57,045 nt of DNA from a virus (taxonomy: Duplodnaviria; Heunggongvirae; Uroviricota; Caudoviricetes). Position numbers and translations under genes: made by a program. Positions 6,939 through 57,045 of the stretch are shown here, piece after piece. The notes beneath the pieces are model-generated. The model ran no database searches. It worked only from the letters and a program-made list of their open reading frames with translations, and was not told the origin of the DNA. The stretch lies in IMG/VR virus record IMGVR_UViG_3300012983_000003, positions 64,001 through 121,045 of that record; one strand, 5' to 3'. Position 1 is the stretch's first letter; the number at the start of each line of letters is the position of its first letter.

Positions 6939-7683
6939 TCGCAGCGAGCATTGTCTTAAGTACCTCGGATTGATGTTCCTCGGGAATAGCCATACCGTAC
7001 TGAACGGCGGCTACAGATTTCTTTCGTTTCAAACTGTTAATATACATTTTTAAGGTATTGAAATAAGAAACCTGATATGTTTTAAATTGAGTTGCTGTTG
7101 TAATAATGGTGTTGATATCCTCTGCGGAATAAAACCTACATAACTCATCATCGGCGTGATAAGGGATGTGTGTTTCGCCATTAGCAACCATAGAAGACAA
7201 AGTAATAAGATTGAGTTGGTCTTGTGTAGTTAAAGAGAAGTGGTACTGATTACCGTCGCTCAAAATTACATCAAAACCATTTGTAATGATTTGATTACAT
7301 ACATAACTCATTTCGTTAATCTTTGCTTCTTTAAGATAATCGAGAGTTACTTCTTCGATGGGGTCAATTACGGGAGCTTCTTCGACAGGCTCATTTTGTT
7401 CCTGTTCAATTTCAATCTCTTCTCCCTTTTCAACAGCGGCAAGTAATATGTCGTATTCGTCTTTCTCAATTCTGACTAACTCAACCGTTTCATAGGAGAC
7501 TGTATCGGTGGTAACAGGAACCATCCAATCTGCACGATAGAATAAATCACCGCATTGAACATACTGAGCACGCTCTTCATCACAAGCTAAGATAATACTA
7601 TGCCTGTGTTGGAATTCACGGAAATTATGCTGAGTAGCAATTCCAACGAAATTCGTGCCACTTATCAGTTTGTAATAATTCAC
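6925..7683 (-). CDS. Tail-fibre-associated protein (DUF4376-like C-terminus)
   Basis: LKEAKINEMS..CNQII..GF.V...HFSLT..DQ.NL...YHAD..LCR.YS pattern typical of small genes following phage fibre genes. Confidence 0.55.
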   Translation of the reverse strand: MNYYKLISGTNFVGIATQHNFREFQHRHSIILACDEERAQYVQCGDLFYRADWMVPVTTDTVSYETVELVRIEKDEYDILLAAVEKGEEIEIEQEQNEPVEEAPVIDPIEEVTLDYLKEAKINEMSYVCNQIITNGFDVILSDGNQYHFSLTTQDQLNLITLSSMVANGETHIPYHADDELCRFYSAEDINTIITTATQFKTYQVSYFNTLKMYINSLKRKKSVAAVQYGMAIPEEHQSEVLKTMLAANGGE

Positions 7684-8917
7684 CGTTCTTACCTCCCTTG
7701 ATATGTTCGTATTTCTTGGTTAATTTATAACCATCAAATAAATCATTGTAGAGTTTTAACATATTCCTTTTCGCGTGATATGACATCGCAACTTTTGTAT
7801 GAGCGAGCCACGACTGCATCGAATTATAAACATCGTCCAGAGTCATACAGCCGTCATCAACTAAATGTCTGAATTTCTTGAGCTTGCGTCTCATACGCAC
7901 AATTCCAGCTTTAGTGAGAGTGCTGACGATTTTGCCGGTGGGAGTAATTCTATAACGAACTTTCATAAACACAAAACCACGAGTAGATTTAACAACTCTT
8001 GTTTTCTTATCATTAAATGTCAGTCCAAGTTCGTCTGCGATTTTCTTCATTTCGGCATACAGTTGATGTAAGGTTTCTTTATTATCCGAGATAACCATAC
8101 CGTCATCCATATATCTGATATAATGTTTAAACTTTCTATGGTCTTTAACATAATGGTCTAATTTGTTAGGAACAACCAAAGCCATTATCTGCGAGATTTG
8201 ACTACCGAGACAAATACCGTGAGACTGATTATTATTGAGTCTCTCCAGAAGTTTATCTCTTTCTTCTCCTGTATAGGTTCTGTTAATGACAGACTTTTCA
8301 TAGGATTTGATGATAGCCATAGTTAAACCCTTAATGTATCTATCGGTAAAGTTTTGATTAAGTACATCGAGGCAAGTTTGGTGTGGGATGCTATCAAAGA
8401 AGCTCTTAAAATCAAAAGTTAAAATATAGAATTCAGAGCCATATTCCTTTACAGCTTTTCGCAAATGACCGACTAATCTCTTTCGTGCAAAATCTACGCC
8501 TTTATCTTTCATACTTGCGCCATTATCATAAATCAATGAGTTTTGTAGCACAGGCACAAGAGCATTATCGCATAGAACACGCTGAGTCATACGGTCTCTG
8601 ATTGTAATAGGTACAATCTCTCTACGCTTACCTCTTTCATACAGTACAATACGATTAACGCTCGATAATTCTGGCAGAACACCGTTCTTCAAACTCTTTA
8701 CTGTTCTGTCGATTTCTACAATAGCGTTATGCGTATATTTTTGAACGCTACCTTTCCAACTAACACCCTTTCGACACTTTCCAAGAGCCTCAACAAAGTG
8801 TTGCATCGTGATAACGCTGTCGAAGTTATCATTATATTTAAACTTTTCAGAGCGTATCTCTGCTTTACGCTTTTTATCGCGCACTATTCGAGCTCTTGCT
8901 CTTTGGTATTTTGTCAT
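7625..8917 (-). CDS. DGR reverse transcriptase
   Basis: DFKSFFDSI, GICLGSQISQ (DGR-type G..SQ signature), YIRYMDD; basic N-terminus; AAAGGAG SD. Confidence 0.97.
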   Translation of the reverse strand: MTKYQRARARIVRDKKRKAEIRSEKFKYNDNFDSVITMQHFVEALGKCRKGVSWKGSVQKYTHNAIVEIDRTVKSLKNGVLPELSSVNRIVLYERGKRREIVPITIRDRMTQRVLCDNALVPVLQNSLIYDNGASMKDKGVDFARKRLVGHLRKAVKEYGSEFYILTFDFKSFFDSIPHQTCLDVLNQNFTDRYIKGLTMAIIKSYEKSVINRTYTGEERDKLLERLNNNQSHGICLGSQISQIMALVVPNKLDHYVKDHRKFKHYIRYMDDGMVISDNKETLHQLYAEMKKIADELGLTFNDKKTRVVKSTRGFVFMKVRYRITPTGKIVSTLTKAGIVRMRRKLKKFRHLVDDGCMTLDDVYNSMQSWLAHTKVAMSYHAKRNMLKLYNDLFDGYKLTKKYEHIKGGKNGELLQTDKWHEFRWNCYSA

Positions 8918-9241
8918 AACTTCAACTCCTTTTGGTATTTGATGTTACCCCGCACGGCTGATTTATTAACTGTTGGTTATAGCCGCAAATAGACTTGTGA
9001 CATCTCAAAAATAAACAGTCATATTATTAAGACGCGCCTACAAACTAAGGCGTTATACTATCTCGCAAGTATAAACGGGATGCTTTCATAGCATACACCT
9101 CTTAAACAGAGGTGTGTTTTATTTACTGCGATTTATCACAGAGGGTTATATTCTCCTTCTCATATATTAAAATCAACATTCCTATTTAATATGATTTCAT
9201 CTCTTTCGCCCTCATTGCGTGGTTACTCAATATATGAAAAT

Positions 9242-9347
9242 CAGGGGCAAACGCCATTCGAGTTGTTGGCGTTGTTGTTGTTGACGTTACCATTGTTGTT
9301 AACATTCCAGAAGTTAGTGGTGTTACCAATATTAGGCGAACGCAACC
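9242..9347 (-). repeat. DGR template repeat (TR)
   Basis: Reads LRSPNIGNTTNFWNVNNNGNVNNNNANNSNGVCP in the VR frame, with 15 AAY codons and 33 adenines; aligns without gaps to the VR. Confidence 0.97.
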
Positions 9348-9417
9348 CCACAAGCGAACAAGCGAACGGGCAGCCGACCCCAACAGGGTGATAGAATATA
9401 ACCAATATTAAGAGTCG

Positions 9418-10212
9418 TTATTTTAAGTTTTCAAAACGACGCTTATCTGATTTTTGTAAACCAGTTAATAATGTTATCTCTTTAACCAACATATCCGACC
9501 ATTCACGCATAATGCGTTCACTGTACTGCATCAGGTTAAAATACGCTAACATTCTTCGGTTCATCTGTTTAAGACAGGATATAGCTTTTGATATGTACTT
9601 ACTGCGTATGATATATTCATCTTTAGTAGTTGGAATTTTCTGATTTGCTTTCATTACATTATTAAAAGCGTCATCAATCAGACTTATCAATAACGCACCC
9701 TCGGTGTCGTCATAACATACCGATGCGTTCAGCACCTTGCTATATGTGTATCTGTGTAGGTTTGACATATTTCTCAGGAACTCTACCGTATGAATTTTGT
9801 CCCAATCTAAAATCATAATTTCTACACTCCTGTCAGTATTGTAAATTAAGTTTAATAAGGAGATTTCTTTATCGATAAACTCGACCCAATGTGCCATAGT
9901 TTTGGTTTTGTAATGTTCAATATTCCACAATACCATTAGGTGTTTATCTAACGATTGTAATAGGTCAACCGACTTTTCAGACAATCCTTGAACATACTTG
10001 ACTTTCTCACACTTATCACGGAAGTAGCACTCATTGATTTCCATTATATTTCGGTACACCCTATTCATAATAATATCAATATCGGTGCTCAACCACCGTC
10101 TCTTCCTTTTAGGTAAGTGAGCAGTCTTTTCTCTGCTAAACCTATATAGTTGCATAAAAGTATTCTCGAACTCTGTGTCAGAAATACGCCGCTGACTCCT
10201 AATTACAGACAT
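9418..10212 (-). CDS. avd: Avd-like accessory protein, tandem double domain (264 aa)
   Basis: Located between VR and TR. MSV.RS.R N-terminus and KSDK.RF C-terminus of Firmicute Avd; the two halves align (EF..L.R / N.M..N / M..W...KEI.LL). Confidence 0.85.
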   Translation of the reverse strand: MSVIRSQRRISDTEFENTFMQLYRFSREKTAHLPKRKRRWLSTDIDIIMNRVYRNIMEINECYFRDKCEKVKYVQGLSEKSVDLLQSLDKHLMVLWNIEHYKTKTMAHWVEFIDKEISLLNLIYNTDRSVEIMILDWDKIHTVEFLRNMSNLHRYTYSKVLNASVCYDDTEGALLISLIDDAFNNVMKANQKIPTTKDEYIIRSKYISKAISCLKQMNRRMLAYFNLMQYSERIMREWSDMLVKEITLLTGLQKSDKRRFENLK

Positions 10213-10271
10213 AATGAAAACCTCCTTTGGTTCTACTCGTCGGGCAAGCCGCCGAGATATTTTTATATATG

Positions 10272-10299
10272 CCCGCCCGACGCTTACGCGCCGAGCAGG
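10272..10299 (-). other. GC-rich hairpin downstream of the VR (candidate DGR target-recognition hairpin)
   Basis: 12-bp stem on the minus strand (9 Watson-Crick + 3 G-T) with a GTAA loop, 22 nt after the target stop, not followed by a T tract. Confidence 0.6.
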
Positions 10300-10320
10300 A
10301 CTTTATGGGTGTATATAGCA

Positions 10321-13300
10321 TCAGATAGAGAAGCAGGGGCAAACGCCACCCGAGTAGTAGGCGTCGCCGTTGGTGACGCCACCATAGCCGTAAACACCCC
10401 AGAAGCCAGTGGTGATACCAACATAAGGCGAACGCAACCACCAATATTGTGCCTGTATCCATCCGCCGCCGATTGCTGCGGTTGCATTAGGCGTAATATT
10501 GTATTTATCCAGAACCTCTTGTGGCTCATAGATATATCCTCTGCTACTATCGTCAGAGTCAAGCCAGATATCACCAGCCTTAATTACATTTGTGCTAACT
10601 GTAGACGGGTCAGATGTAGCCGAGAAGAATTTTACATCATCAGGGATAATCAAACCTTTAAACTTAAGTCTATATCTATCTGATGTATACCAAGTGATAT
10701 AATCACCCTCACTTGCATACGGCTCACTCGAGTTATTATTCATCTCAGTTGTCGAGGCTAAATAAACATTGTCTTCCGATACAATGAGTTCACTTGATTT
10801 ATTGCCAGCAGAAGCGTTGATTTTCACCTTTTTCAACATAGACTTCCATACAGTTGGCAGCGCATCGTATATTCTTGTATTCAAGAAAGTACGCATCAAC
10901 GAAGCATCCCAGCCACCGACATTGGTATTGGTTGAATTCATCCAATAAGTTCTACCTGCAAGTAAGTGATTACAAATAAACGAAGCATTGGATTTTTGGC
11001 TCGTACCACCAGCTAATCTGTATCTCTCAGACCCACAGAATTCCATTCTCAACGGCTCGTGATACCAAGTTGCTAATTGCTTACAGTTGGTATCTCCAAT
11101 GTCGTCATACCAAATTTTACACCAGTGAATAATACCTGTACCATAGTCATCATAGCCACCATCACTGAAACGAATACCGCCGAACGAGATGGCTTCGTCC
11201 GTATTTGTACTACGACTTCTGGTAATTTCAGCTCGAATTGTTGCTGCGCTAAATTGTGTTTTTGCGTCTGTACCGTTAGAGGCATACACATATAATTTAT
11301 TTTCGCCTTTACGATGTCTAATGACTACAATGTCACGCTGTAATCCACTACCAAACTCTTGTTTGACATCGCCCCACTGTATATTCGGATTAGAATTATA
11401 TCGTAATCTAAATCCCTCGGAGCCATCTTCTTGGAATGTAGAAACAAGCGTATTATTAACATCTGTACCAGTAAATTGATAATCAATCGCCAATGTAAAG
11501 CTTCTTTCATTTTCACCAAAAAGTTTAACTTCTGTCGTAGTCGCAGTAGTACCGTCAAGCACGAGATTTTCTGCAAGCACCTCACTTGGTACATTTGCAA
11601 AATTAAAGTCGTGACCAAGTGTAATGTCGGTGTAGTCTTTTAATGCAAAATAGTTTGCTGTTTTACCAGACGCTACCACAGCATTGATTTCGGCTACAGA
11701 CATCTCCTCGAGGTGTTTACCACCTTCTACGGTAGGTAATGCGGGTAAGCTTGCTCTTTCCCAGATAGCATATACATCTGTGTCGCCACGGATATAGCCT
11801 GTGCTCTTATCCCAACCGGCAAACACATTGTAAATAGCGAATTCTTCCTCGGTTGTATTTGTAGGAGTTGCGCCAGTATAAACAACCTCGCTACCGTAAG
11901 TAGCCTGTGTAGAGCCGAGAGATAAGCCAGCTCTCGAATACCAAGTTACCGTGTAAGTACGAACAGTCTTGGTGTATTTAGCCTTAACGGTACGCTTCGC
12001 AAGAACAGCACTTGTAATTTCATCCCAGCCACTACCTGCGACATATTCGCCGTCTGTAGTCGTGCCGAACTCGTAAGTATATTGCTCGTCGCTTGCCTTG
12101 GTAGGCTTAGCAATCCAGCCTTCTTTATACGGGTCGGGCGGTGTGGCGTTCTGGTCAACATAAACTTCATATAAAACTGTGTTTTCATCATCATCGTTCA
12201 CATAGGTGATAAGATGCTGAGGAATTAAGTTTGCGGGGTCATAAGTAACTTCCAAGTCAGACCAAGCAGCCGCATAATTTGCGAGTTCCTGATTTCTGAT
12301 AGCGCCACTTACATATACCTTACCGCTAAGCGAAGTGTTGTTCATAGCAAGGATTTCGTTGAGAAGTGTACTGTCGGGAAGTGTCCAATCGATACCTGTG
12401 AGTCGGAGTGTTTGTAAGGTATCTTTTGCATCAACAACGATAGCGTACTCATCTACGATAGAGTTTTCCTCTGTCAAAGACTCAAGGTTATCATAAGATA
12501 CTTGTAAGTCTGTTAAGTAGTTAAGGTTACGCATCGACAAAGTGTTAATGGTATCAGGTAAGTGAGCAGTCACAATCTTACCGTTCGGTGCAAAGATAAC
12601 ACCAGTAATTGCGGTGCCCTCGGCATAGAATGTTTCGAGGTTGCCACAACTTGTAAGGTTGACAGAGCCGATTAAGTTCGGGCAGTTCTTGACATTCAGT
12701 TCCTGAAGCAATGCGTTATTACCGATATTAAGTTCAGTTAAGAAACTGTTAGCATAACCCTCGGTGTCATTACCGATAATTAACTTCTGAAGCTTAGAAG
12801 CCTTAGTGAAGTCGTTATCGTGAATATAACAACCAGAAAGGTCATTAAGTTCCTGAATTTTAGACGAGCAGTAGATGAGGATTGCAGTATCATCCATCTT
12901 ACCACTTAAGGGGTTCTTGATTTCATACTCAACACCCGCTTTTGCACGAATTTGCATCGGGGTAGCAGAGTTACCATAGAGAACCGAAAGGTACATATCT
13001 GCATAAGGAACAATCTTAAGGTCATAATTCGGGGTTACAACCGCTTCGGTAGGCGTATTACATCTGAACATAATCTGGTCAGCCTTAACAGAAGCAGCGA
13101 CATATTTGGTGCCCATATAGGCTTCTTGGTCGCGTTCCCATTGTCTACGGTGGTATCTCTTACGACCATTCATCATAGTCTCTAAGAAACGCTTTGTACC
13201 ACCTTGATATGTACGATAATATTTACGCTCAATATCGAGCTTCCAAAGTTCTTCGCAGAACATTTCTTGCCAAGTATCGAACTGAGAAATTAAACCGCTT

Positions 13301-39744: not shown

Positions 39745-39761
39745 TGTAACCATCTCCTTAT

Positions 39762-39792
39762 ATAGAAAATCCCACACGAGTTACCGTGTGGG
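39762..39792 (-). terminator. Terminator between portal unit and scaffold
   Basis: 8-bp stem CCCACACG/CGTGTGGG followed on the minus strand by ATTTTCTAT. Confidence 0.55.
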
Positions 39793-45730: not shown

Positions 45731-45817
45731 AACGCAAGTCACCTCCTTATATAATAAAAGGAGCCAGACGCATCCGACTCCTTTAGGTGTAGTCCGCAGA
45801 CATCCACCGCAATTCCG

Positions 45818-47017
45818 TTATTCGATTTTTAAAGAAATATCATAATGACAGATAATTCCCTTATCTGTGCAAACACACACCATCTGTTCGGGTTGCCCAA
45901 AAATACGCTTTTGAACACAGTATGGGTCAACACCCAAGAATGAACCAGCCATAATGGTTTTGATGCCCTGAACAGTGTCAACTTTGTTATGGTGCATATG
46001 ACCAGATAACACGCCGTATAACTGTACGCCGGTCATAGTTTGTAGTGCTTGTACTTTTGCAGGAGAACCATCAAAATCTCCGTGCACGCCGCAATATTTT
46101 TGCCCGCGAATGTCTATAAGATACATCGTTGGGTCGATGCGACTATCTGTATCGATAAAGATATTGTCAAAATTTTGAAGTCTTGCAGATAAATACCAAT
46201 CAATCAGGTCATCAAGCCTTTCTTCAATTAACGCATTATCTTTATTCTTTTCAATACGACTGTGATTACCAGAAACACTCACAAATCTTACGGTTTTGAA
46301 GTGCTTGCTTAATTCCGCGAGGAATTCAGAAATTAACTCCGAAACACCCATAAGCTGAGCGATAGTGTTTTCCTTGTTTGTAACTTGGATACTATTATGA
46401 ATGTAACCAGATATAGCATCACCGTTTTCCCAAACAATACAGTTTTCGCTTCTGTGTGTTTCTGCAATATGTATGATGTTATCGAGATATAGATTGAGCA
46501 TCTCTCGACAAATATCCGAATTGTATGTTCCCCAATAATTAGAGTGAGTAGCGCCGTAGTGCATATCATTTAAACTAACGAGCAAGTCGTTGTTTGAGGA
46601 CTCTATATTATTAGGAGTATAGTTTAAAGACGGAAGATTACCTTTTTGGATTTCGTCTATTAAAATCTCATTTAGCTCTTCCTGTCGCGAACGCTCTCTA
46701 ACAATTTTATTAAAAGCATTGCGTTGGTCATAAAATTTCTGACGCTCCTTGCGAAGCTCTATCATTTTGATGTCGAGCTCGCTTAAAATTTCATCACTTT
46801 TAATCGTGCTTACTCTCTCAGCGTCTAATAGTTCCAATGTTCTACGACTTCCGTATAACATTCGACGAGCAACATCGCTTGAATATGATTGTCCATAGAC
46901 TAATTCTGAAAGTTCGGTATAGTCCATATCTGCGAGCGTTTTATCTACGAGCTTACCATAGACCAGTCTTTTATGATAGTCTAAGGCAGTTTCGTTAGGA
47001 TTTCGCTCTATTTGTAT
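45818..47017 (-). CDS. Calcineurin-like metallophosphoesterase
   Basis: DMHYG, GD, GNHSR, HGD, GHMHH. The frame stays open 30 codons above ATG 46927; only CTG (47026) or ATA (47017/47011) starts are available before an in-frame TAA. Confidence 0.85.
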   Translation of the reverse strand: MQIERNPNETALDYHKRLVYGKLVDKTLADMDYTELSELVYGQSYSSDVARRMLYGSRRTLELLDAERVSTIKSDEILSELDIKMIELRKERQKFYDQRNAFNKIVRERSRQEELNEILIDEIQKGNLPSLNYTPNNIESSNNDLLVSLNDMHYGATHSNYWGTYNSDICREMLNLYLDNIIHIAETHRSENCIVWENGDAISGYIHNSIQVTNKENTIAQLMGVSELISEFLAELSKHFKTVRFVSVSGNHSRIEKNKDNALIEERLDDLIDWYLSARLQNFDNIFIDTDSRIDPTMYLIDIRGQKYCGVHGDFDGSPAKVQALQTMTGVQLYGVLSGHMHHNKVDTVQGIKTIMAGSFLGVDPYCVQKRIFGQPEQMVCVCTDKGIICHYDISLKIE

Positions 47018-47207
47018 GGTCTCCAGCCCCTTTCTTTACCGCCTTGTTACCCTGATTACGAACTTCATCAAGGTATTTCATTACACCCTTGGACTCCTCG
47101 CAATAGTAACGATGGCGTTTAGATTTCTGCTTCATTGTTCTAACGATATGAGCCTTCGGGAAGCGCTTTACAATAGCTTCTTTTTCTTGTTTAGAAATAG
47201 CAATCAT
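46995..47207 (-). CDS. Small basic hypothetical protein
   Basis: 70 aa, K/R-rich (KQKSKRHRYY). Confidence 0.65.
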   Translation of the reverse strand: MIAISKQEKEAIVKRFPKAHIVRTMKQKSKRHRYYCEESKGVMKYLDEVRNQGNKAVKKGAGDHTNRAKS

Positions 47208-47240: not shown

Positions 47241-47771
47241 TTATGGGTACTCGCAAGTAAATCGCAAACTTAAAGTACCATTATAGTTACCTGCCGTTAC
47301 GGCACCACCTTCTAAAGACACAGGGCATCCGAGGTCAAAATAGCAAATCTCGGTCGGGTCAGCAGAACCCATAGTGCTGTGAAATTTATGTAATAGTTTG
47401 GTACTACCATCCATTACGCCCTCGCTTGTTGTTACCACCACAGAGATTGCATTACCAGTTGTCTCGTAATTGTCTGCATACAAAGTAATTCGGCTCTGGT
47501 CGTCGGCATTAGTAACATAGCAACTTAACGCATAGTTAGAGTCAAAATTGGACATATCAGCGTGGATTTGGTTCTGTTGATTTGTCATAATAAACACAGG
47601 AACACTAACGCTGTATGTACTATAGGCATAGTGTCCTACACCAACATCAACGAGATAATCTTCGCCACCAGCGACATTTAATGTTCCACTGTCAACTTGC
47701 GCGCTTGCGGTTATTGCGGTTGGTATAATCAGTAATACCATACAAAGTAAAATTGCTAACAATCTTTTCAT
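47241..47771 (-). CDS. Secreted beta-sandwich protein (signal peptide; WxL/pilin-like C-terminus)
   Basis: MKRLLAILLCMVLLIIPTAITASA signal peptide; YSVSVP and C-terminal AGNYNGTLSLRF strand. Confidence 0.6.
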   Translation of the reverse strand: MKRLLAILLCMVLLIIPTAITASAQVDSGTLNVAGGEDYLVDVGVGHYAYSTYSVSVPVFIMTNQQNQIHADMSNFDSNYALSCYVTNADDQSRITLYADNYETTGNAISVVVTTSEGVMDGSTKLLHKFHSTMGSADPTEICYFDLGCPVSLEGGAVTAGNYNGTLSLRFTCEYP

Positions 47772-47787
47772 AAGTCTTACACTCCTT

Positions 47788-48306
47788 TTATTCTACTAAC
47801 GACCTAATTTCAATCGGAAATTCATACCGTGTTAGCGGGGTATGTTGGTCGTCTAATGTGCAACAGGTATATACCATTAAAGCATTACGATAGAGACCTT
47901 CGTTAAGTTTTTGTGTAAACTCGGCAGAAGTAATCGTCTCTGCTGGGTAGATATAATCGGATGTGTAAAGCTTTGTGCCGTCGTTCAAATAAATATCAAC
48001 GACGAATACATACTTATTGCCTGACGGATTTAAGATATTTAGTTTTTGGCGTGTAGTATTGCTTTTAACTACAATTCCGGTAGTTGCCGGAATTACAACA
48101 TTATTATCCTGTTGTGCCGCCGTGAAACCGCCGTCGCCATTAAACTGTATATCTGGTAAAGATGGCTTCTGGTATTTACCGTCATTACCATTGCCAAATT
48201 TCAGCGCTAAAATCAAAGCCACGATAAGTATTAGAGCAATACAAATCACGATAACAACCTTGGTTTTAGAGCCGCGGAAAATAAATTTAGATATATTTCC
48301 TTTCAT
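47788..48306 (-). CDS. Membrane-anchored extracellular Ig-like protein
   Basis: Basic N-terminus + single TM helix, then NP..N.Y.F...LY.S..I.P...L..G.Y beta-rich domain. Confidence 0.6.
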   Translation of the reverse strand: MKGNISKFIFRGSKTKVVIVICIALILIVALILALKFGNGNDGKYQKPSLPDIQFNGDGGFTAAQQDNNVVIPATTGIVVKSNTTRQKLNILNPSGNKYVFVVDIYLNDGTKLYTSDYIYPAETITSAEFTQKLNEGLYRNALMVYTCCTLDDQHTPLTRYEFPIEIRSLVE

Positions 48307-48324
48307 TATAGCACCTCATCAAGT

Positions 48325-48363
48325 GGGGTTAAAACCGTTGCTACACAACGGTTTTTAGACCCC
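48325..48363. other. Inverted repeat between the RNA polymerase operon and the secreted pair
   Basis: Perfect 10-bp stem AAAACCGTTG/CAACGGTTTT with a 5-nt loop, extended by GGGGT/ACCCC. Confidence 0.55.
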
Positions 48364-48379
48364 TATTTTTTCCAACAAA

Positions 48380-49150
48380 TCAGTTTTTAACACCGTCTTG
48401 AAATCGTTGTCTCATAACAGAATTTATATTCTGTTGCATCTTTATCTCAAGAGCGCAGTCTGCACAATATTTTAAATTACGACCAACCGATGTGTTTTGT
48501 TTTAAAACAAGTCCACAGTTTGCACATTCAAAATACGGTTCTCCGTGATACTTCAAATACTGATAGCCAAGATTACGGAAGTCGGTGATAGTCATTACGG
48601 TCTCGCCGTCTTCGATAAAACACACTCTAACATTTGTATTATCAACCCTACGAGAGAACTGCACCATACCAAGTTCATTGAGGTTGTAATACATCAAGCT
48701 CTGGCGCTTGATAGAAGTGTTGATGTTTGCCATTCTCATTATCTCGCTATCCTTATTATTAACCCAACTATCGCAGTTCGGATTTACAAGGTTCCAATAC
48801 TTAGCGAGACAGAGAAGCGTAAACGCGAGACGGCGAACTTGTTTACCCTCTAACGCATCAATTTTTGCCATTTCGGGTGCGGTGATTTCTATACCATCAA
48901 TTTGGATAGCGTCATACTTTAATGCTCGGTTTAAAGCCAACTCAAGTGTATCAGCCCACTTCGGCAAAGACGCGGTTGGTTCGCACTGTAATAAGAATTG
49001 CTCAGTTGCTTTTCTTGCTTCCTTTTTGCCATAGTCTTTATCTAAATAATATTTCGCAACACGACATAAGGTCTCAAATGGTTTCTTACCGAGATTACGA
49101 GTTTCAATACATTCTCTTGCCCAATCGTGTTCGTTCAAAACAATAGTCAT
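48380..49150 (-). CDS. Hypothetical protein coupled to the RNA polymerase gene, C-terminal Zn finger
   Basis: ATGA overlap with the YonO-like stop; CANC...CADC. Confidence 0.7.
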   Translation of the reverse strand: MTIVLNEHDWARECIETRNLGKKPFETLCRVAKYYLDKDYGKKEARKATEQFLLQCEPTASLPKWADTLELALNRALKYDAIQIDGIEITAPEMAKIDALEGKQVRRLAFTLLCLAKYWNLVNPNCDSWVNNKDSEIMRMANINTSIKRQSLMYYNLNELGMVQFSRRVDNTNVRVCFIEDGETVMTITDFRNLGYQYLKYHGEPYFECANCGLVLKQNTSVGRNLKYCADCALEIKMQQNINSVMRQRFQDGVKN

Positions 49151-51882
49151 TCACTCACCTCGATTTTGATAGTCTCGACAATAAATTTGTTCTCACAGAA
49201 CTCTATGTCGCCATCGCTATCGAGTGTAGGGTAAGAAATCTGATTGTCGTTTCGTTGTAATAAATTATGTATAATTTCGGAGCCACACATACTCCAAGCA
49301 AAACGCTTGGTTGAATTTCTGGTGTAGCAGATATCAAGAATAATGTTACAAAGTGTATTCTTATTAGGACAAATTTTGTAACACTCTTTACGGAACTCGT
49401 CGTTCATCACAGATAATGCAATAAATGAGTCGCAGTCATCAATGCGTTCGTAGTCCGCGAAAATTGCATAACTTGCAAGTCGCTTATTATAATCATCATA
49501 CAGACGCTTAATCGAATTAAACTGCTTGGTTGTGTACTCGTCTTCGCTCCTCATAATAGAGTAATCGAATTTAATAACAGAGTTATGCTTACCGATATGT
49601 CCGTCGAATTCGTCCTCAAAACGCCAGCATATCTTGTTCATAACGCAAGGATTGATACCAACCGGCAAACGAAAATCGTAATATCTTAAGAACTCTTCCT
49701 GACGCTCGGTTAGGTCTGATTTCGGAATTGCCTTTAACTCAGCAACGGTCATTTGAAACTCTCGCAAAGCGTTCTTGTCTGTGTTTTTAATGTAAGTGTT
49801 ATACTGCTTACTTAACATAGGATAGATATATCGCATAAAGTAAGGCTTCTTATCGGCGACAATATTGCGTTGGAATTTGGCATCACCCTCGCTCTTATTA
49901 GCAGCGTGTCGGTCATACCATAACCTCGGCATAGGTTTACACACAATTCCTTTAGCTTTGTCAATCGCGTTTTGCTGATATAGCTGACCGCATCGAATAC
50001 GGTATGACAGAGTATCATATTCCTCTGACCCTTTTTCAAAACGAGCACGAACCTCAAACATAGATGTAATCCAGTTTGTAGTCTGACCGATGTCATTGCC
50101 AAAACTCTCGATATTGGAACGAATGAAATCGTCCTCAGTCGGCACTCTCTTTGTTGCTCGTCTCTGGGCGCACATTAACGCAGGTAATGGTTGGAGTTTA
50201 TTCACCAATACCTTATTATCGGTGAGCATCACGAGGTCTCCGTCGAAGTCGCAACCATTTAAAGCACTCGCGGCGGTATCCCAAGAATTGAAAATCGTAC
50301 AAGTAGTCATATACTGATACCAGTAACGAACTTGCTCATTATCAGCGGGTCTCACCAAACGGATATTGTTATGACAGGTCATAGGCGCTCTGAAACACGC
50401 AAGTCTGTCTGCTCCGCGGTCAGCCCAATACTGATTGTAAATTTCACCGTCTTTTAATAATCCAGTAAGCTCAAGACCGAAGATACTCTGGCATAAGGTA
50501 TAGGGGTCGCCAGATACTATGGAGTAGTTTCCGTGAACTTTAAGTACGCCCACCTTAGCCTCGTTAATACGATTACGGATTAACTGATAAATTGTGCTTT
50601 GGACAAACGGGTCGTCAACCATTCGTGGGTCAATCATAATAGCCTTAATAAAGTCATCATCGATGCGACCAATATTATCTGCGTTAAGACCGGCACCCTT
50701 TAAGAAAAGAACAGTCTTTCTCCAGTCACCGCCAAGCACATCTTTTATCTCGTTCATTGTCGGTGAAATTAACTCTTCGATGTCGTTATCATCGAGGTCA
50801 TAACTTTGGATGAACTGATAGTTAAGATTACGCTCTGTCTCAAGTTCTTTCGGACAAGTTTTCGCTATACCGAATGTGTATCCATTCTCTATGGATTTAT
50901 TTATGTAATCTTCGCAACTCTCATAGGAGTCCCAAAGTTTTACCATTGATGTAGTGAGTACGAGTTCGACATTACGAATATCAACTTCGTTACCCCAAGC
51001 ATCTTTAACTATGTATTGTTTTGCTACCTTATCAGCAAAATCCACGAAGTCAAATGTGAACACCATACCTTTCTCAAATGAGAAACGAGTGTTAACACCG
51101 CTAACTCTGTAATCAAGTCCAAGCTCTTCACTCCACTTGTCTGCAAGGCTCGGTAGCATAATACCGTATCCGTCCGATGCGTCCATCTGAATTTTCTCAT
51201 TCTTACGCATCTCCATAACGGGTTCTCCATCGCCCTCGTCTGTGAGATAAATGATGTCGGATAAGAATTCCGTCTCGCAGTCATCAACCACTAAAATACC
51301 GTTAGGTAAAGATACGGGCGTGGACGCGCTACAGGTAAGAGCCTTATAAGCTTCTAACTTTGCAGGCACAAGTTCCGCATCAGGATTTCTGCCGTTGTCA
51401 ATTCTGCGTCGTAACTCATCGGCGTGTTTTTCACTCACGAAAACAATGGTACTGTTTTTGATACCGCCATTAGTTCCGAGCAGGCGCTTGTATTTAATAC
51501 CGTTAATACTGAAACCTCGGCACGCACGGTAGTAGTCTTTTTCTTTATCGATAATCAAGCACATATAGTCTGGTTTGTACTGAAGTTTATCGAGTTTAGT
51601 ATATAACTGCTTAATAACTCTACGATTTTGGACATTATTTGGCTCTTTCCTAATACGCTTGATTTCCTGCTTAATCTCTCGCGCCTGTCTATCCGCATCG
51701 GTAATACCATTCAGTTCATCAATCCATCTAAGCACTTGGCTATCTGCCAACGAAATTACTTCATCATTTCGTCTGGCTTCTTCGATTGGTAAAGTTAGTT
51801 TCCATCTTTCCTTACGCAACCGACTACTGTGTATCTTATAGATATACTTTTGACACACCAACTGTTTCGATATAACAGTCAC
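49147..51882 (-). CDS. yonO: YonO-like single-polypeptide DNA-dependent RNA polymerase (two-barrel / RdRP-like family)
   Basis: Catalytic NGCDFDGD (DFDGD at 50236-50250), DGYG and R.P motifs, ~910 aa, and SPbeta-like neighbourhood. Probable true start is ATA 51873. Confidence 0.9.
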   Translation of the reverse strand: MTVISKQLVCQKYIYKIHSSRLRKERWKLTLPIEEARRNDEVISLADSQVLRWIDELNGITDADRQAREIKQEIKRIRKEPNNVQNRRVIKQLYTKLDKLQYKPDYMCLIIDKEKDYYRACRGFSINGIKYKRLLGTNGGIKNSTIVFVSEKHADELRRRIDNGRNPDAELVPAKLEAYKALTCSASTPVSLPNGILVVDDCETEFLSDIIYLTDEGDGEPVMEMRKNEKIQMDASDGYGIMLPSLADKWSEELGLDYRVSGVNTRFSFEKGMVFTFDFVDFADKVAKQYIVKDAWGNEVDIRNVELVLTTSMVKLWDSYESCEDYINKSIENGYTFGIAKTCPKELETERNLNYQFIQSYDLDDNDIEELISPTMNEIKDVLGGDWRKTVLFLKGAGLNADNIGRIDDDFIKAIMIDPRMVDDPFVQSTIYQLIRNRINEAKVGVLKVHGNYSIVSGDPYTLCQSIFGLELTGLLKDGEIYNQYWADRGADRLACFRAPMTCHNNIRLVRPADNEQVRYWYQYMTTCTIFNSWDTAASALNGCDFDGDLVMLTDNKVLVNKLQPLPALMCAQRRATKRVPTEDDFIRSNIESFGNDIGQTTNWITSMFEVRARFEKGSEEYDTLSYRIRCGQLYQQNAIDKAKGIVCKPMPRLWYDRHAANKSEGDAKFQRNIVADKKPYFMRYIYPMLSKQYNTYIKNTDKNALREFQMTVAELKAIPKSDLTERQEEFLRYYDFRLPVGINPCVMNKICWRFEDEFDGHIGKHNSVIKFDYSIMRSEDEYTTKQFNSIKRLYDDYNKRLASYAIFADYERIDDCDSFIALSVMNDEFRKECYKICPNKNTLCNIILDICYTRNSTKRFAWSMCGSEIIHNLLQRNDNQISYPTLDSDGDIEFCENKFIVETIKIEVSE

Positions 51883-51892
51883 CCCATTTCAT

Positions 51893-51914
51893 ATAGATTA
51901 TATAATTATCTTGA
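51893..51914. promoter_or_regulatory. Operator/promoter-like motif copy A
   Basis: ATAGATTATATAATTATCTTGA, identical to 55124-55145; contains TATAAT on the minus strand just upstream of the RNA polymerase SD. Confidence 0.7.
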
Positions 51915-51925
51915 CTGTCTAAAAA

Positions 51926-52108
51926 TTAAGACATTCTGTCTTCTATGTATTCAAAAAAATCTCTACGGAACTCTTCGCGTCTCTGCTCGATTAACTCATC
52001 GATAGAAGCATCTTCCGCATCGTCGCCGATAGGGGCGTAATTATCACAAACTTCGTCCTCTGAACAGAAATCATTATAGTAGCAGTATTTGCAACTCTTA
52101 TCACTCAA
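51926..52108 (-). CDS. Small Cys-rich acidic protein (60 aa)
   Basis: TTG 52108 after AAAGGAGG; CKYC...C...C. Confidence 0.65.
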   Translation of the reverse strand: MSDKSCKYCYYNDFCSEDEVCDNYAPIGDDAEDASIDELIEQRREEFRRDFFEYIEDRMS

Positions 52109-53359: not shown

Positions 53360-53905
53360 TTACTGAACAAAATGAACATCCTTAATATACTTCCAATCAA
53401 TATATTTGGTGAGCCATACACCATTTTCTGATAGATAAAACCTCCGTCCGTCGTCAGACATTCGTTTAGTATCAACCGCCAACACAACACACTTACCGTG
53501 CCTACTGCCCACGCTTACCGCTGTATCTAAATCTTTAGATAAATGAACATATAAACGACTCATAGACTTGATACCTTGGTGCTTAATGTTATCTAAAAAT
53601 TTTGTAGCAGTACCGTGATATAGGATGTCGGGCGGCTTGGCTTCTTTCAATTCGACATTGACTTTAACGCTATGACCTTGATTAGCACGGATTAGTTCCT
53701 TACTCTCGTTAAACGAGTATCTTCCTTTATTATCCGTTCGCACAATCTCTTCAAGCATCTCCATATTGATAGTTCTACCAGAGCCGTTAATACCATCAAT
53801 CAACTCTTTAACATTTGCCCAACCGTGTTCATCCAAGGTAATGCCTATTACATCGGGCTTGTGTCGAAGAATAAGACTAATAAAGATACTTAATCTTTCA
53901 TCCAC
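53360..53905 (-). CDS. kptA: RNA 2'-phosphotransferase (Tpt1/KptA)
   Basis: LILRH, GWA, D.KGRY, IRANQGHS, LYHGT, M.R.YVHLS, VG.RHG, SENGVWL. Confidence 0.93.
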   Translation of the reverse strand: MDERLSIFISLILRHKPDVIGITLDEHGWANVKELIDGINGSGRTINMEMLEEIVRTDNKGRYSFNESKELIRANQGHSVKVNVELKEAKPPDILYHGTATKFLDNIKHQGIKSMSRLYVHLSKDLDTAVSVGSRHGKCVVLAVDTKRMSDDGRRFYLSENGVWLTKYIDWKYIKDVHFVQ

Positions 53906-55123: not shown

Positions 55124-55188
55124 ATAGATTATATAATTATCTTGAATAGAGTAAAAATAAAACCTGAAAACAGATTATATAATTATCT
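55124..55188. promoter_or_regulatory. Operator-like motif copies B and C
   Basis: 22-bp copy 55124-55145 and 17-bp core AGATTATATAATTATCT at 55172-55188, between the promoter and the recombinase start. Confidence 0.7.
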
Positions 55189-55202
55189 CAACTTACACTA
55201 TA

Positions 55203-55230
55203 ATTATACCATATAAACCTATGCTGTCAA
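55203..55230 (-). promoter_or_regulatory. Consensus sigma-A promoter driving the recombinase/Tpt1/helicase/RNAP operon
   Basis: TTGACA - 16 bp - TATAAT with extended TGn. Confidence 0.8.
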
Positions 55231-55520: not shown

Positions 55521-55549
55521 TTGACACAACCTTATTTTGTGAGTACCTT
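55521..55549 (+). promoter_or_regulatory. Possible upstream sigma-A promoter
   Basis: TTGACA - 17 bp - TACCTT, overlapping the 19-bp motif at 55537-55555. Confidence 0.4.
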
Positions 55550-55621: not shown

Positions 55622-55722
55622 ATTAGTGCGGTATGATACACCGCCCTATTAAATATCGGTTATTGTTGCAACCGAAACACAAGGCAACAAGCGGTTACAA
55701 CCACCGCCAAAAAGGAGACACT

Positions 55723-56838
55723 ATGAAAGCAAACACAACCACACAAGCAACCACACAAGCAACCGACACCAAAGCAACCTTTACAACCCTTATGTTAGAG
55801 TACATAAGACAAGCAAACCCAAGCACACGCACAAGCGAAAAGGACTACACAAAAGCATTGACCGACCTTGCAACCGCCGTTGCATATAGTGTACTTAAAA
55901 AGTGCATAGAGACAAGCCAAAACCAAGCATTGATACAAGTTAAAAGGGACATAGCAAGGGACACCGCCCTTTTGAATAATATCAAGTATGCACAAGATAA
56001 TGCCTATGAGTACAGATACAACAAAGACGGCGAAAGAGTGCTTGTTATCAAGGACAAAGACCTACACACCGCCCTTGACAAGATGTGTGCCGAAACAATG
56101 GGCGAAGGCATTGACCTTGTACACGAAGCCGTTATATCACTTATGACCGAGTACGAAAAGGCAACCCAAAGAACCCTTTACACCCTTTACGACCAAAACG
56201 ACAAAGAGATTTACAGCGGTTACGAAAGACCGCAAAACATACCCGAAAGCATAACCAAAAGCACATATCTTGACAATGATTATTACATTGAGATTATGAC
56301 AATGAATAATCATATTCAATGGTTAGAGAAACCCTACACCATAAGACAGTTAAAGCGTAAAGTATGGATTAAGGTTGAAGACAGTAAAAACGGATGGGAG
56401 ACCACCACCACCACACCCATACAACAAGTATATAAAGCAGTACGCCGAGCAATAGAGCAGTCAAGAGCAGTGCAAACGGATGCACGAAACGGCTACACAT
56501 ATCTTGAAGACCTTGCAAGAGATGAAGAAACCGACACCGAGCAAGTTATATACCGCCGTTTGCCCAAGTATGCCGACTTAGGCGGTAATGTTACCGACTT
56601 TAACGGCAAAGAGACCGCCTACACCGCCGACACCCAAACAGTACAAGACATAGACACACTTATTGAAAAACTGAATTTATCAAAGCAACAAGCCAAGATT
56701 TTACAGTTAAGGTTAAGCGGTTACGGGGTTAGGGCAATAGCCACATATTGCGGTGTAAAGCCCTGTAATATCAATACACAATTATACCGCATACAAGATA
56801 AATGCAAGGCAATAGGACTTGTACCGCAAACCAAATAA
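55723..56838 (+). CDS. ECF/sigma-70-like protein with large insertions and a C-terminal HTH
   Basis: DLVHEAVISL and VYKAVRRAI resemble sigma region 2; LSKQQAKILQLRLSGYGVRAIATYCGV...TQLYRI resembles region 4. ATG 55723 follows AAGGAG; the track start 55633 has no SD. Confidence 0.55.
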   Translation: MKANTTTQATTQATDTKATFTTLMLEYIRQANPSTRTSEKDYTKALTDLATAVAYSVLKKCIETSQNQALIQVKRDIARDTALLNNIKYAQDNAYEYRYNKDGERVLVIKDKDLHTALDKMCAETMGEGIDLVHEAVISLMTEYEKATQRTLYTLYDQNDKEIYSGYERPQNIPESITKSTYLDNDYYIEIMTMNNHIQWLEKPYTIRQLKRKVWIKVEDSKNGWETTTTTPIQQVYKAVRRAIEQSRAVQTDARNGYTYLEDLARDEETDTEQVIYRRLPKYADLGGNVTDFNGKETAYTADTQTVQDIDTLIEKLNLSKQQAKILQLRLSGYGVRAIATYCGVKPCNINTQLYRIQDKCKAIGLVPQTK

Positions 56839-56922: not shown

Positions 56923-57045
56923 GCAACCGCCACACCGCACCGCAAACAAGGGCTTGTGAGTACCTTTGCGGTTAAGGGTGTAAGGCAACCGCCACACCGC
57001 ACCGCAAACAAGGGCTTGTGAGTACCTTTGCGGTTAAGGGTGTAA
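56923..57045. repeat. Perfect 62-bp tandem repeat, truncated by the window end
   Basis: 56923-56984 repeated at 56985-57045 (61 bp visible); includes TTGTGAGTACCTTTGCGGT, also found at 55537-55555. Confidence 0.9.

Follow-up and report, generated by a model that had tools for sequence, protein, structure and literature searches.

The window analysed here, a stretch of 57,045 nucleotides, covers positions 64001-121045, the right-hand 57 kb of an IMG/VR virus record of 121,045 bp (IMGVR_UViG_3300012983_000003), which represents a gut phage and has direct terminal repeats. The named phages closest to it are c-st, Enterocloster phages, and SPbeta, all of them large, temperate, and from Clostridia and Bacillus. 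Between ~55 kb and 3.4 kb nearly all of the genes are on the minus strand, and within this train a gene for an RNA polymerase of the YonO family (49147-51882, minus strand) is directly followed by a gene for a 256-residue protein with a zinc ribbon (48380-49150, minus strand), here called the partner. On the 3' side of the partner gene come an A-rich stretch, a 39-nt hairpin, and a promoter-like element, and this layout is kept across the family. The following concerns these genes and features, and the part they might play in the transcription of the late genes of the phage.

The polymerase gene encodes 911 amino acids when read from the listed GTG, and probably 908 when read from an ATA codon discussed below. 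A preliminary description of the locus had claimed an open reading frame (ORF) of 911 amino acids with an NGCDFDGD motif, encoding a YonO-like single-chain RNA polymerase. Both ORF and motif are present, the motif being the catalytic loop at residues 542-549 (50236-50259, minus strand) with the aspartates D545, D547, and D549. The protein matches the Pfam RNA-dependent RNA polymerase (RdRP) family PF05183 over residues 120-603 with an E-value of 3.9e-15 (56 bits against a gathering cut-off of 23.8). BLASTP aligns residues 122-609 with YonO of SPbeta at 26% identity (E 2e-30), and tblastn against the same protein gives E-values from 1e-24 to 9e-27. When a profile of 27 relatives of the window polymerase (A2) was compared with a profile of 27 YonO-clade proteins from bacterial genomes (A4), hhalign aligned them with a probability of 100% and an E-value of 2.9e-55 over 678 columns (119-915 against 140-837), the C-terminal helical domain included. 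The polymerase profile also finds matches in 67 YonO-clade ORFs.

Eight residues are common to all two-barrel polymerases: those of the DxDxD motif, a fourth aspartate, the R-x4-K of barrel B, and the RxP preceding DxDxD (Ruprich-Robert and Thuriaux, 2010; PMC2919709). The window polymerase has all eight, as D237, R266, K271, R498, P500, D545, D547, and D549, and all 27 relatives share them without exception. The distances between the catalytic residues are 29, 5, 2, and 47, against 29, 5, 2, and 45 in QDE-1. An AlphaFold model of the protein has a mean predicted local distance difference test (pLDDT) score of 85.5, and its top Foldseek match is likewise QDE-1 (E 2e-18, TM ~0.5). This is followed by plant RDR2, the Thermus-phage polymerases P32 gp64, P74 gp62, and P23-45 gp96, the enzyme from phi14:2, a crAss-like phage, and bacterial beta-prime. 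Sequence, profile, catalytic residues, fold, and synteny together give firm support for membership in the YonO family, and the hidden Markov model and structure comparisons bear out what had been proposed. The term single-chain holds for the whole catalytic body, which is found in one polypeptide. It does not hold for the zinc ribbon, which YonO has in cis and which here comes in trans: the C-terminus of the window polymerase consists of beta strands without CxxC pairs, and the C-terminal ribbon of the YonO clade is absent. We take the missing ribbon as a feature of the clade and not as one that defines the family.

YonO is a processive, rifampicin-insensitive, DNA-dependent RNA polymerase that reads the late genes of SPbeta as a single operon and is needed for their expression, while its promoter and any factors were left open by the discoverers (PMC5467207). 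Since YonO is the only family member that has been tested, the template preference and biological role of the window enzyme are read from it, and by this analogy the enzyme would be DNA-dependent and serve the late genes.

Residues 834-852 of the polymerase (~49327-49383, minus strand) hold a C-x3-C-x6-C-x6-C pattern in the C-terminal helical domain. It is conserved in at least 90% of the relatives, has no counterpart in YonO, and may be a structural metal site. The polymerase gene is interrupted in several relatives, while that of the window has no intron. Group I introns (Rfam RF00028, 74-98 bits) are found exactly at the NG/DFDGD codons in L062 (5648-5885) and L064 (1698-1939), two of the related viral loci. 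Another one (RF00028) lies near polymerase residue 502 in L069 (9492-9805). In c-st (L002, 6678-7045) a 368-nt insertion is found at the same catalytic site, and the gene is annotated as two ORFs.

The listed GTG of the polymerase gene falls within its own ribosome-binding site, GGGGTGA (51879-51885). Six nucleotides after this site, three codons beyond the GTG, is an ATA (51871-51873, minus strand) that is a probable near-cognate start, and in the PHROG and tblastn alignments of the polymerase the first aligned residue is number 4. Because the GTG lies inside the ribosome site and the conserved N-terminus begins at the ATA, the gene most likely starts at ATA 51873, which would give a protein of 908 amino acids. 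Among 41 distinct relatives the aligned start codon is ATA (13), ATT (13), CTG (7), CTT (2), AAG (2), ATG (2), ATC (1), or TTG (1). In nearly all of them it is placed 5-8 nt 3' of GAGGTG or GGAGG, just before a conserved S/A-K-Q-L, and in four relatives (L017, L024, L027, and L073) the open frame around the conserved N-terminus lacks any ATG, GTG, or TTG. The use of weak start codons seems to be systematic in the family, and may be a means of dosage control.

The partner gene begins in an ATGA stop/start overlap with the polymerase gene (49147-49150, minus strand), and a GAGGTGA ribosome site is found within the last polymerase codons, 4-5 nt before the partner ATG. The protein is composed of a helix bundle (residues 7-78), a predicted winged helix (86-203), a zinc ribbon (206-232), and a C-terminal helix. 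The ribbon is encoded at 48455-48526 (minus strand) and has the cysteines C209-x2-C212 and C229-x2-C232 in a CxxC-x16-CxxC arrangement; all four are invariant in 34 partner sequences, and Pfam zinc-ribbon models match weakly, under their cut-offs. The preliminary description had claimed a 256-residue zinc-finger protein translationally coupled to the polymerase, and both points are confirmed at the level of the gene.

A single-sequence search located a partner homologue immediately 3' of the polymerase in 76 of the 79 related viral loci; of the other three, one is truncated and two are very distant. The start of the partner overlaps the end of the polymerase ORF in 74 of these 76, with partner identities down to 33%. 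Even where the polymerase is only 28% identical (L077), the overlapping ORF of 357 amino acids is a partner homologue (hhalign 96.6%, E 6e-10). The partner diverges faster than the polymerase, for example with 52% against 70% identity. An exhaustive profile search with the partner gave 1730 clusters, the best 150 of which are stand-alone proteins of ~250-380 amino acids. No longer protein holding the whole partner (profile A1) was found at E <= 0.001, which is weak evidence.

The model of the partner has a pLDDT of 94.9 and a predicted TM-score (pTM) of 0.87. Residues 86-203 resemble many winged-helix domains with Z-scores of 6-8.2, the best matches being of the ORC/Cdc6, CRP, LexA, and Fur types (Z 6-8), while the whole partner has no Foldseek match in the PDB at E <= 0.001. 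A winged-helix fold of the region is plausible as a fold class, with no specific family assigned. Similar predicted folds are found in proteins of gut Siphoviridae (TM 0.63-0.81). No Pfam model of sigma-70 regions 2 or 4 matches the partner at E <= 1, and no sigma factor is found among its sequence matches to solved structures. The suggestion that the protein is a possible specificity subunit is supported, as a hypothesis, by the near-universal coupled co-occurrence, the predicted winged helix, and a ribbon that is homologous to a part of YonO.

The C-terminus of YonO has the form CxxCG...KYCxxCG, and in the YonO clade C798, C801, C815, and C818 are conserved in at least 90% of the proteins. 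The partner of c-st aligns to this C-terminus over 22 residues (E 9e-4). With hhalign, the partner profile matches YonO alone with a probability of 69.6% and the YonO-clade profile with 94% (E 1.4e-7). Six YonO-clade polymerases in turn match the partner profile at their last ~50 residues. Every alignment between partner and YonO is confined to the ribbon and the helix that follows it. No separate partner was found among the plus-strand ORFs of 72 YonO-clade loci. Judged from these alignments, polymerases of the YonO clade have the zinc ribbon fused to them, while in the clade of the window it comes in trans, and the helix bundle and winged helix are additions of the latter clade. As the ribbon is fused in one clade and split off in the other, a physical association of polymerase and partner is suggested, though this is not proof, and the enzyme of the window phage is probably a two-protein machine.

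The hairpin after the partner gene (48325-48363, minus strand) is long and weakly terminator-like, with an A-rich stretch before it and TTG after it (dG -22.3, z -5.9). When the sequences were folded singly, z was below -2 in 23 of 28 diverse relatives, with unrelated stem sequences. RNAalifold gave no consensus structure on the intergenic alignment, in which the stems are out of register. The element itself, TTGATGAGGTGCTATAATGAAAGGAAATATA, is found at 48292-48322 (minus strand); it is single-copy, and at this place it is conserved throughout the family. With a position weight matrix it scores 36, against 13.2 at the next-best site in the 121-kb genome and at most 19.6 in shuffled sequences. 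Arrangements like TTGNNN-N6-TATAAT-G are also found 3' of the partner in the 47% relative L074 and in L077. In most relatives TTGATG or TTGCAG is kept 6 nt upstream of the hexamer resembling a -10 box, while a usable -35 at a distance of 16-18 nt is found in 5 of 28, and a TG extension in 15 of 28. The geometry of the element is not that of a canonical sigma-A promoter.

In the YonO clade another motif, ATAATCG-N3-4-TTAAGGGAR, recurs 120-160 nt after the polymerase gene. The mapped start site of SPbeta YonO is described as upstream of yonK, at genome position 2225998 (PMC5467207). No copy of the recurring motif is found in the gap between yonN and yonK that contains the published start site. 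By the prophage coordinates, position 2225998 would fall into this gap, in agreement with the paper. The junction between the HU gene and the next gene, which would be the analogue of the SPbeta promoter region, was considered as a start site and rejected, as there is no intergenic space there in the window's family. The element is for these reasons regarded only as a candidate promoter for the phage enzyme, with use by the host polymerase, or a terminator followed by a leader ORF, as live alternatives.

Two ORFs of 172 and 176 amino acids (47241-48306, minus strand) are inserted right at the conserved element, the first of them starting at its ATG. Outside the window phage they are limited to its closest relatives (L005-L007), and in other relatives the site is taken up by 130-200 non-coding nucleotides.

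On the upstream side, a 12/12 sigma-A promoter (55203-55230, minus strand) and a second one (55128-55155, minus strand) are found 5' of a recombinase-like gene. From there the order is recombinase-like gene, Tpt1, a gene for 406 amino acids, polymerase, and partner. A 22-bp AT-rich dyad with TATAAT (51893-51932, minus strand) adjoins the polymerase gene on its upstream side, and further copies are found at both sigma-A promoters (55124-55163 and 55170-55209). These are likely operator/promoter sites that would place the operon under early or repressor control. A sigma-like protein of 401 amino acids with sigma-70 region 4 is encoded close by (55633-56838). On the downstream side, a terminator-like hairpin (45757-45784, minus strand) lies between the exonuclease gene and a train of recombinase, HU, and terminase genes, and the equivalent place is in many relatives occupied by a hairpin or by apparent tRNA genes. 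The polymerase gene is found 5' of the HU-like gene and the packaging and structural genes, as expected for YonO-like enzymes, and the order polymerase, (partner), HU, terminase is common to the window, PMBT24, c-st, and SPbeta. A search with Rfam gave no match in the window at either gathering or relaxed thresholds.

The diversity-generating retroelement (DGR) that had also been claimed for this phage is present at 7625-10439 (minus strand), and consists of variable repeat (VR), avd, template repeat (TR), and reverse transcriptase (RT) gene. The RT (7625-8917) matches a reverse-transcriptase PHROG. TR (9236-9347) and VR (10328-10439) differ only at TR adenines, and VR is placed at the 3' end of the gene for a tail protein of 2555 amino acids. 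The cassette does not belong to the polymerase module; it shares the strand of this module and is 39 kb downstream of it, between the tail fibre and lysis genes in the distal end of the gene train. Intergenic gaps between module and cassette contain terminator-like hairpins at 45784, 39792, 30115, and 23250. No promoter better than chance was found 5' of avd or TR, and a stretch of 500 non-coding nucleotides that includes TR separates avd from the RT gene. In ten large relatives whose polymerases are 62-74% identical to that of the window, the best match to the RT is at most 38% identical, and four have none; because of this the cassette is regarded as an accessory and not as something that accompanies the polymerase module. 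Forrest et al. link hairpin-dependent pausing and termination to a flap domain that YonO does not have (PMC5467207), and it is by this analogy conceivable that the phage enzyme reads through the hairpins. That it drives the DGR during lytic growth is a speculation, reasonably extrapolated from SPbeta and based only on the cassette being co-directional with the minus-strand train.

Taken as a whole, we consider it fairly probable that the phage has its own YonO-family transcriptase which, together with a coupled partner, starts at the element after the partner gene. Polymerase and partner would be made from one early operon, read by the host RNA polymerase from the sigma-A promoters near 55.2 kb, and the near-cognate ATA start probably throttles translation of the polymerase. 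The partner, made by coupled translation, would most likely dock on the polymerase via its zinc ribbon, while its winged helix would add DNA binding and help the enzyme to start at a defined site. The best candidate for this site is immediately 3' of the partner gene, where the hairpin and the TTGATG-N6-TATAAT-GAAAGGAAATATA element are found in single copy. The enzyme would from this point transcribe the long minus-strand train of exonuclease, recombinase, HU, terminase, head, tail, DGR, and lysis genes. It is tempting to go further and regard the partner as the missing promoter-specificity factor of YonO-type enzymes, recognising the hairpin-TTGATG-TATAAT element, with near-cognate starts keeping the enzyme low until induction and the same switch timing DGR mutagenesis to lytic growth. 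This extended proposal is tentative, and we consider it rather unlikely to hold in full.

Several observations weigh against the partner and the element having these roles. Outside the ribbon no counterpart of the partner is detectable in YonO, and YonO consequently works without a helix bundle and winged helix. The partner might then be a separate DNA-binding regulator, acting as activator or repressor at the element, or a factor for replication or packaging whose only link to the polymerase is co-expression, and the generic nature of the winged-helix fold is compatible with any of these. Gene neighbourhood alone is also weak evidence for binding. The overlap with its internal ribosome site is, however, retained in nearly all relatives even when the partners are highly divergent, and the partner also accompanies the 28%-identical polymerase of L077. 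As polymerases of the YonO clade have a homologue of its ribbon as a covalently attached domain, the fused-versus-split argument also speaks for an association, and we judge an independent regulator to be distinctly unlikely. A second alternative is host use of the element. The element contains a perfect extended -10, TGCTATAAT, by which the host RNA polymerase could use it, and TTAACC-16-TATAAT scores 10/12. It further overlaps a GAGGTG and an ATG that resemble a ribosome site and start codon, the latter being the start of the ORF of 172 amino acids. The YonO start site in SPbeta lies after the HU gene, while the element lies before it, so the two positions are not analogous. The element might thus serve the host polymerase with sigma-A or the sigma-like protein encoded nearby, or represent only a terminator and, after it, the translation start of a short leader ORF, with the phage polymerase starting elsewhere. 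On the other hand, a usable -35 and a TG extension are not general among the relatives, the 6-nt spacing after TTGATG or TTGCAG is not sigma-A geometry, and the short ORFs at the element vary in both length and sequence. That the element is unique in 121 kb fits a single promoter for one long operon, as is the case in SPbeta. We consider use by the host somewhat unlikely, and retain the element as a candidate start site of the phage enzyme.

A further alternative concerns the role of the enzyme as a late-gene transcriptase. The top Pfam family and the top fold matches are eukaryotic RNA-dependent polymerases, the records of PMBT24 and TR-TP1 carry the label 'RNA-dependent RNA polymerase', and the neighbours of the polymerase gene include a helicase-like gene, an exonuclease, and HU, as might suit an enzyme that acts on RNA or makes replication primers. 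Such names follow the Pfam label and not an assay, nearly the full length of the window protein can be aligned with the YonO clade, and the sole tested member of the family is DNA-dependent and needed for late genes (PMC5467207). A role on RNA or in priming is accordingly very improbable. The DGR is another matter, as its expression independently of the phage polymerase, for example from a weak host promoter in lysogens, falls only a little short of an even chance; diversification would then not be tied to lytic growth. The distance to the polymerase module with terminator-like hairpins in between, the non-coding stretch around TR, and the accessory appearance of the cassette all suit this alternative. 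A sigma-A-like 9/12 site (9434-9405) is also found just before TR, but matches of this quality are at chance level, with 56 found against 54 expected. Transcription by the phage enzyme is favoured by the location of the cassette, which is co-directional with and placed between tail and lysis genes that in SPbeta belong to the YonO-dependent operon.

When compared to YonO of SPbeta (Forrest et al., 2017; PMC5467207), the window polymerase is similar in that a single polypeptide contains both double-psi beta-barrels and that the eight catalytic residues are shared. Both phages are large temperate siphoviruses of ~120-135 kb with the polymerase upstream of HU-like, packaging, and structural genes. 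The differences are that YonO has its own zinc ribbon and no partner gene, while the ribbon-less window polymerase has its ribbon, together with a helix bundle and winged helix, supplied by the protein of 256 amino acids; that the two polymerases are ~26% identical; that a near-cognate start is probable in the window; and that the motif found after yonO differs from the window element. The closest sequenced phage relatives are c-st (CST179/CST178/CST177) and the Enterocloster phage PMBT24, with 40-43% identity and the same order of polymerase, partner, and HU. They differ from the window in that the c-st gene is interrupted at the catalytic motif as described above, and in their records the proteins are named hypothetical or 'RNA-dependent RNA polymerase'. 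The c-st annotation from 2005 had already noted the likeness of CST177 to the YonO C-terminus. QDE-1 and RDR2 (PDB 2J7N, 7Y7T, 7W82) resemble the window polymerase in fold, over ~930 columns, and in belonging to the same Pfam family, but they are eukaryotic RNA-silencing enzymes that are ~13% identical to it, and nothing in the window suggests an RNA template. Winged helices and zinc ribbons are also known from cellular basal factors, namely TFE/TFIIE-alpha and the ribbon of TFIIB/TFB. As in the window phage, they occur beside a two-barrel polymerase, and the partner has a weak match to 8byq_W, a chain of a Pol II pre-initiation complex (Z 6.1). The sequences are not similar, and the structural matches do not exceed what generic winged helices give. 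The comparison is an analogy only.

In the literature searched, no description was found of the partner architecture, the start-codon pattern, or the element, while the polymerase family itself is known. The polymerase gene as such is an ordinary member of a large gut-phage gene family. No polymerase of this kind other than YonO has been characterised, and since its promoter finding and need for factors were left open, three features are of interest as testable handles: a coupled partner with a domain in common with YonO, a conserved DNA element present once per genome, and systematic weak start codons. If the partner is indeed a specificity factor, the two proteins would make up a very small two-barrel transcription system that might inform on the minimal requirements for initiation, and possibly be of use as an orthogonal expression tool.

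Some further features of the region should be mentioned. The Tpt1/KptA RNA 2'-phosphotransferase gene of the polymerase operon (53360-53905, minus strand; Pfam E 1e-48) has no counterpart in 79 related loci, though the flanking genes are conserved, and it looks like an accessory insertion. The reading frame of the exonuclease/phosphoesterase is open for ~100 nt 5' of the listed ATG (46928-47035, minus strand), and by eye the translation upstream of the ATG, ETALDYHKRLVYGKLVDK, is conserved in L036. The stretch 46928-46994 was for this reason discarded as a conserved intergenic region, as it is in frame with the exonuclease gene and probably coding. The gene probably starts further 5', at a non-canonical codon such as the ATA at 47017 or 47011. 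The exonuclease gene is separated from the recombinase-HU-terminase train by a gap (45742-45818) that is a variable cargo site across the relatives. Many have what by eye are tRNA-gene-like sequences there, and most have a terminator-like hairpin just 5' of the recombinase. The listed GTG of this recombinase falls within its own ribosome site, and a TTG at 45737 is a likelier start. RAGATH-18 RNA motifs (Rfam RF03064, 62-64 bits) are found upstream of the HU gene in c-st (L002, 10965-11025) and next to the terminase gene in L062 (13460-13520), while the window has none.

A layout of hairpin, T-rich tail, and TATATAAGGAG(A/G)TG directly before a gene start occurs at 39751-39792 and at 45740-45784 (minus strand), and exact matches to TATATAAGGAG in the window are confined to these two sites. 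At the very end of the record there is a perfect tandem repeat of 61 nt (56923-57045), a 19-nt core of which is found again at 55537; the repeat probably belongs to the genome terminus.

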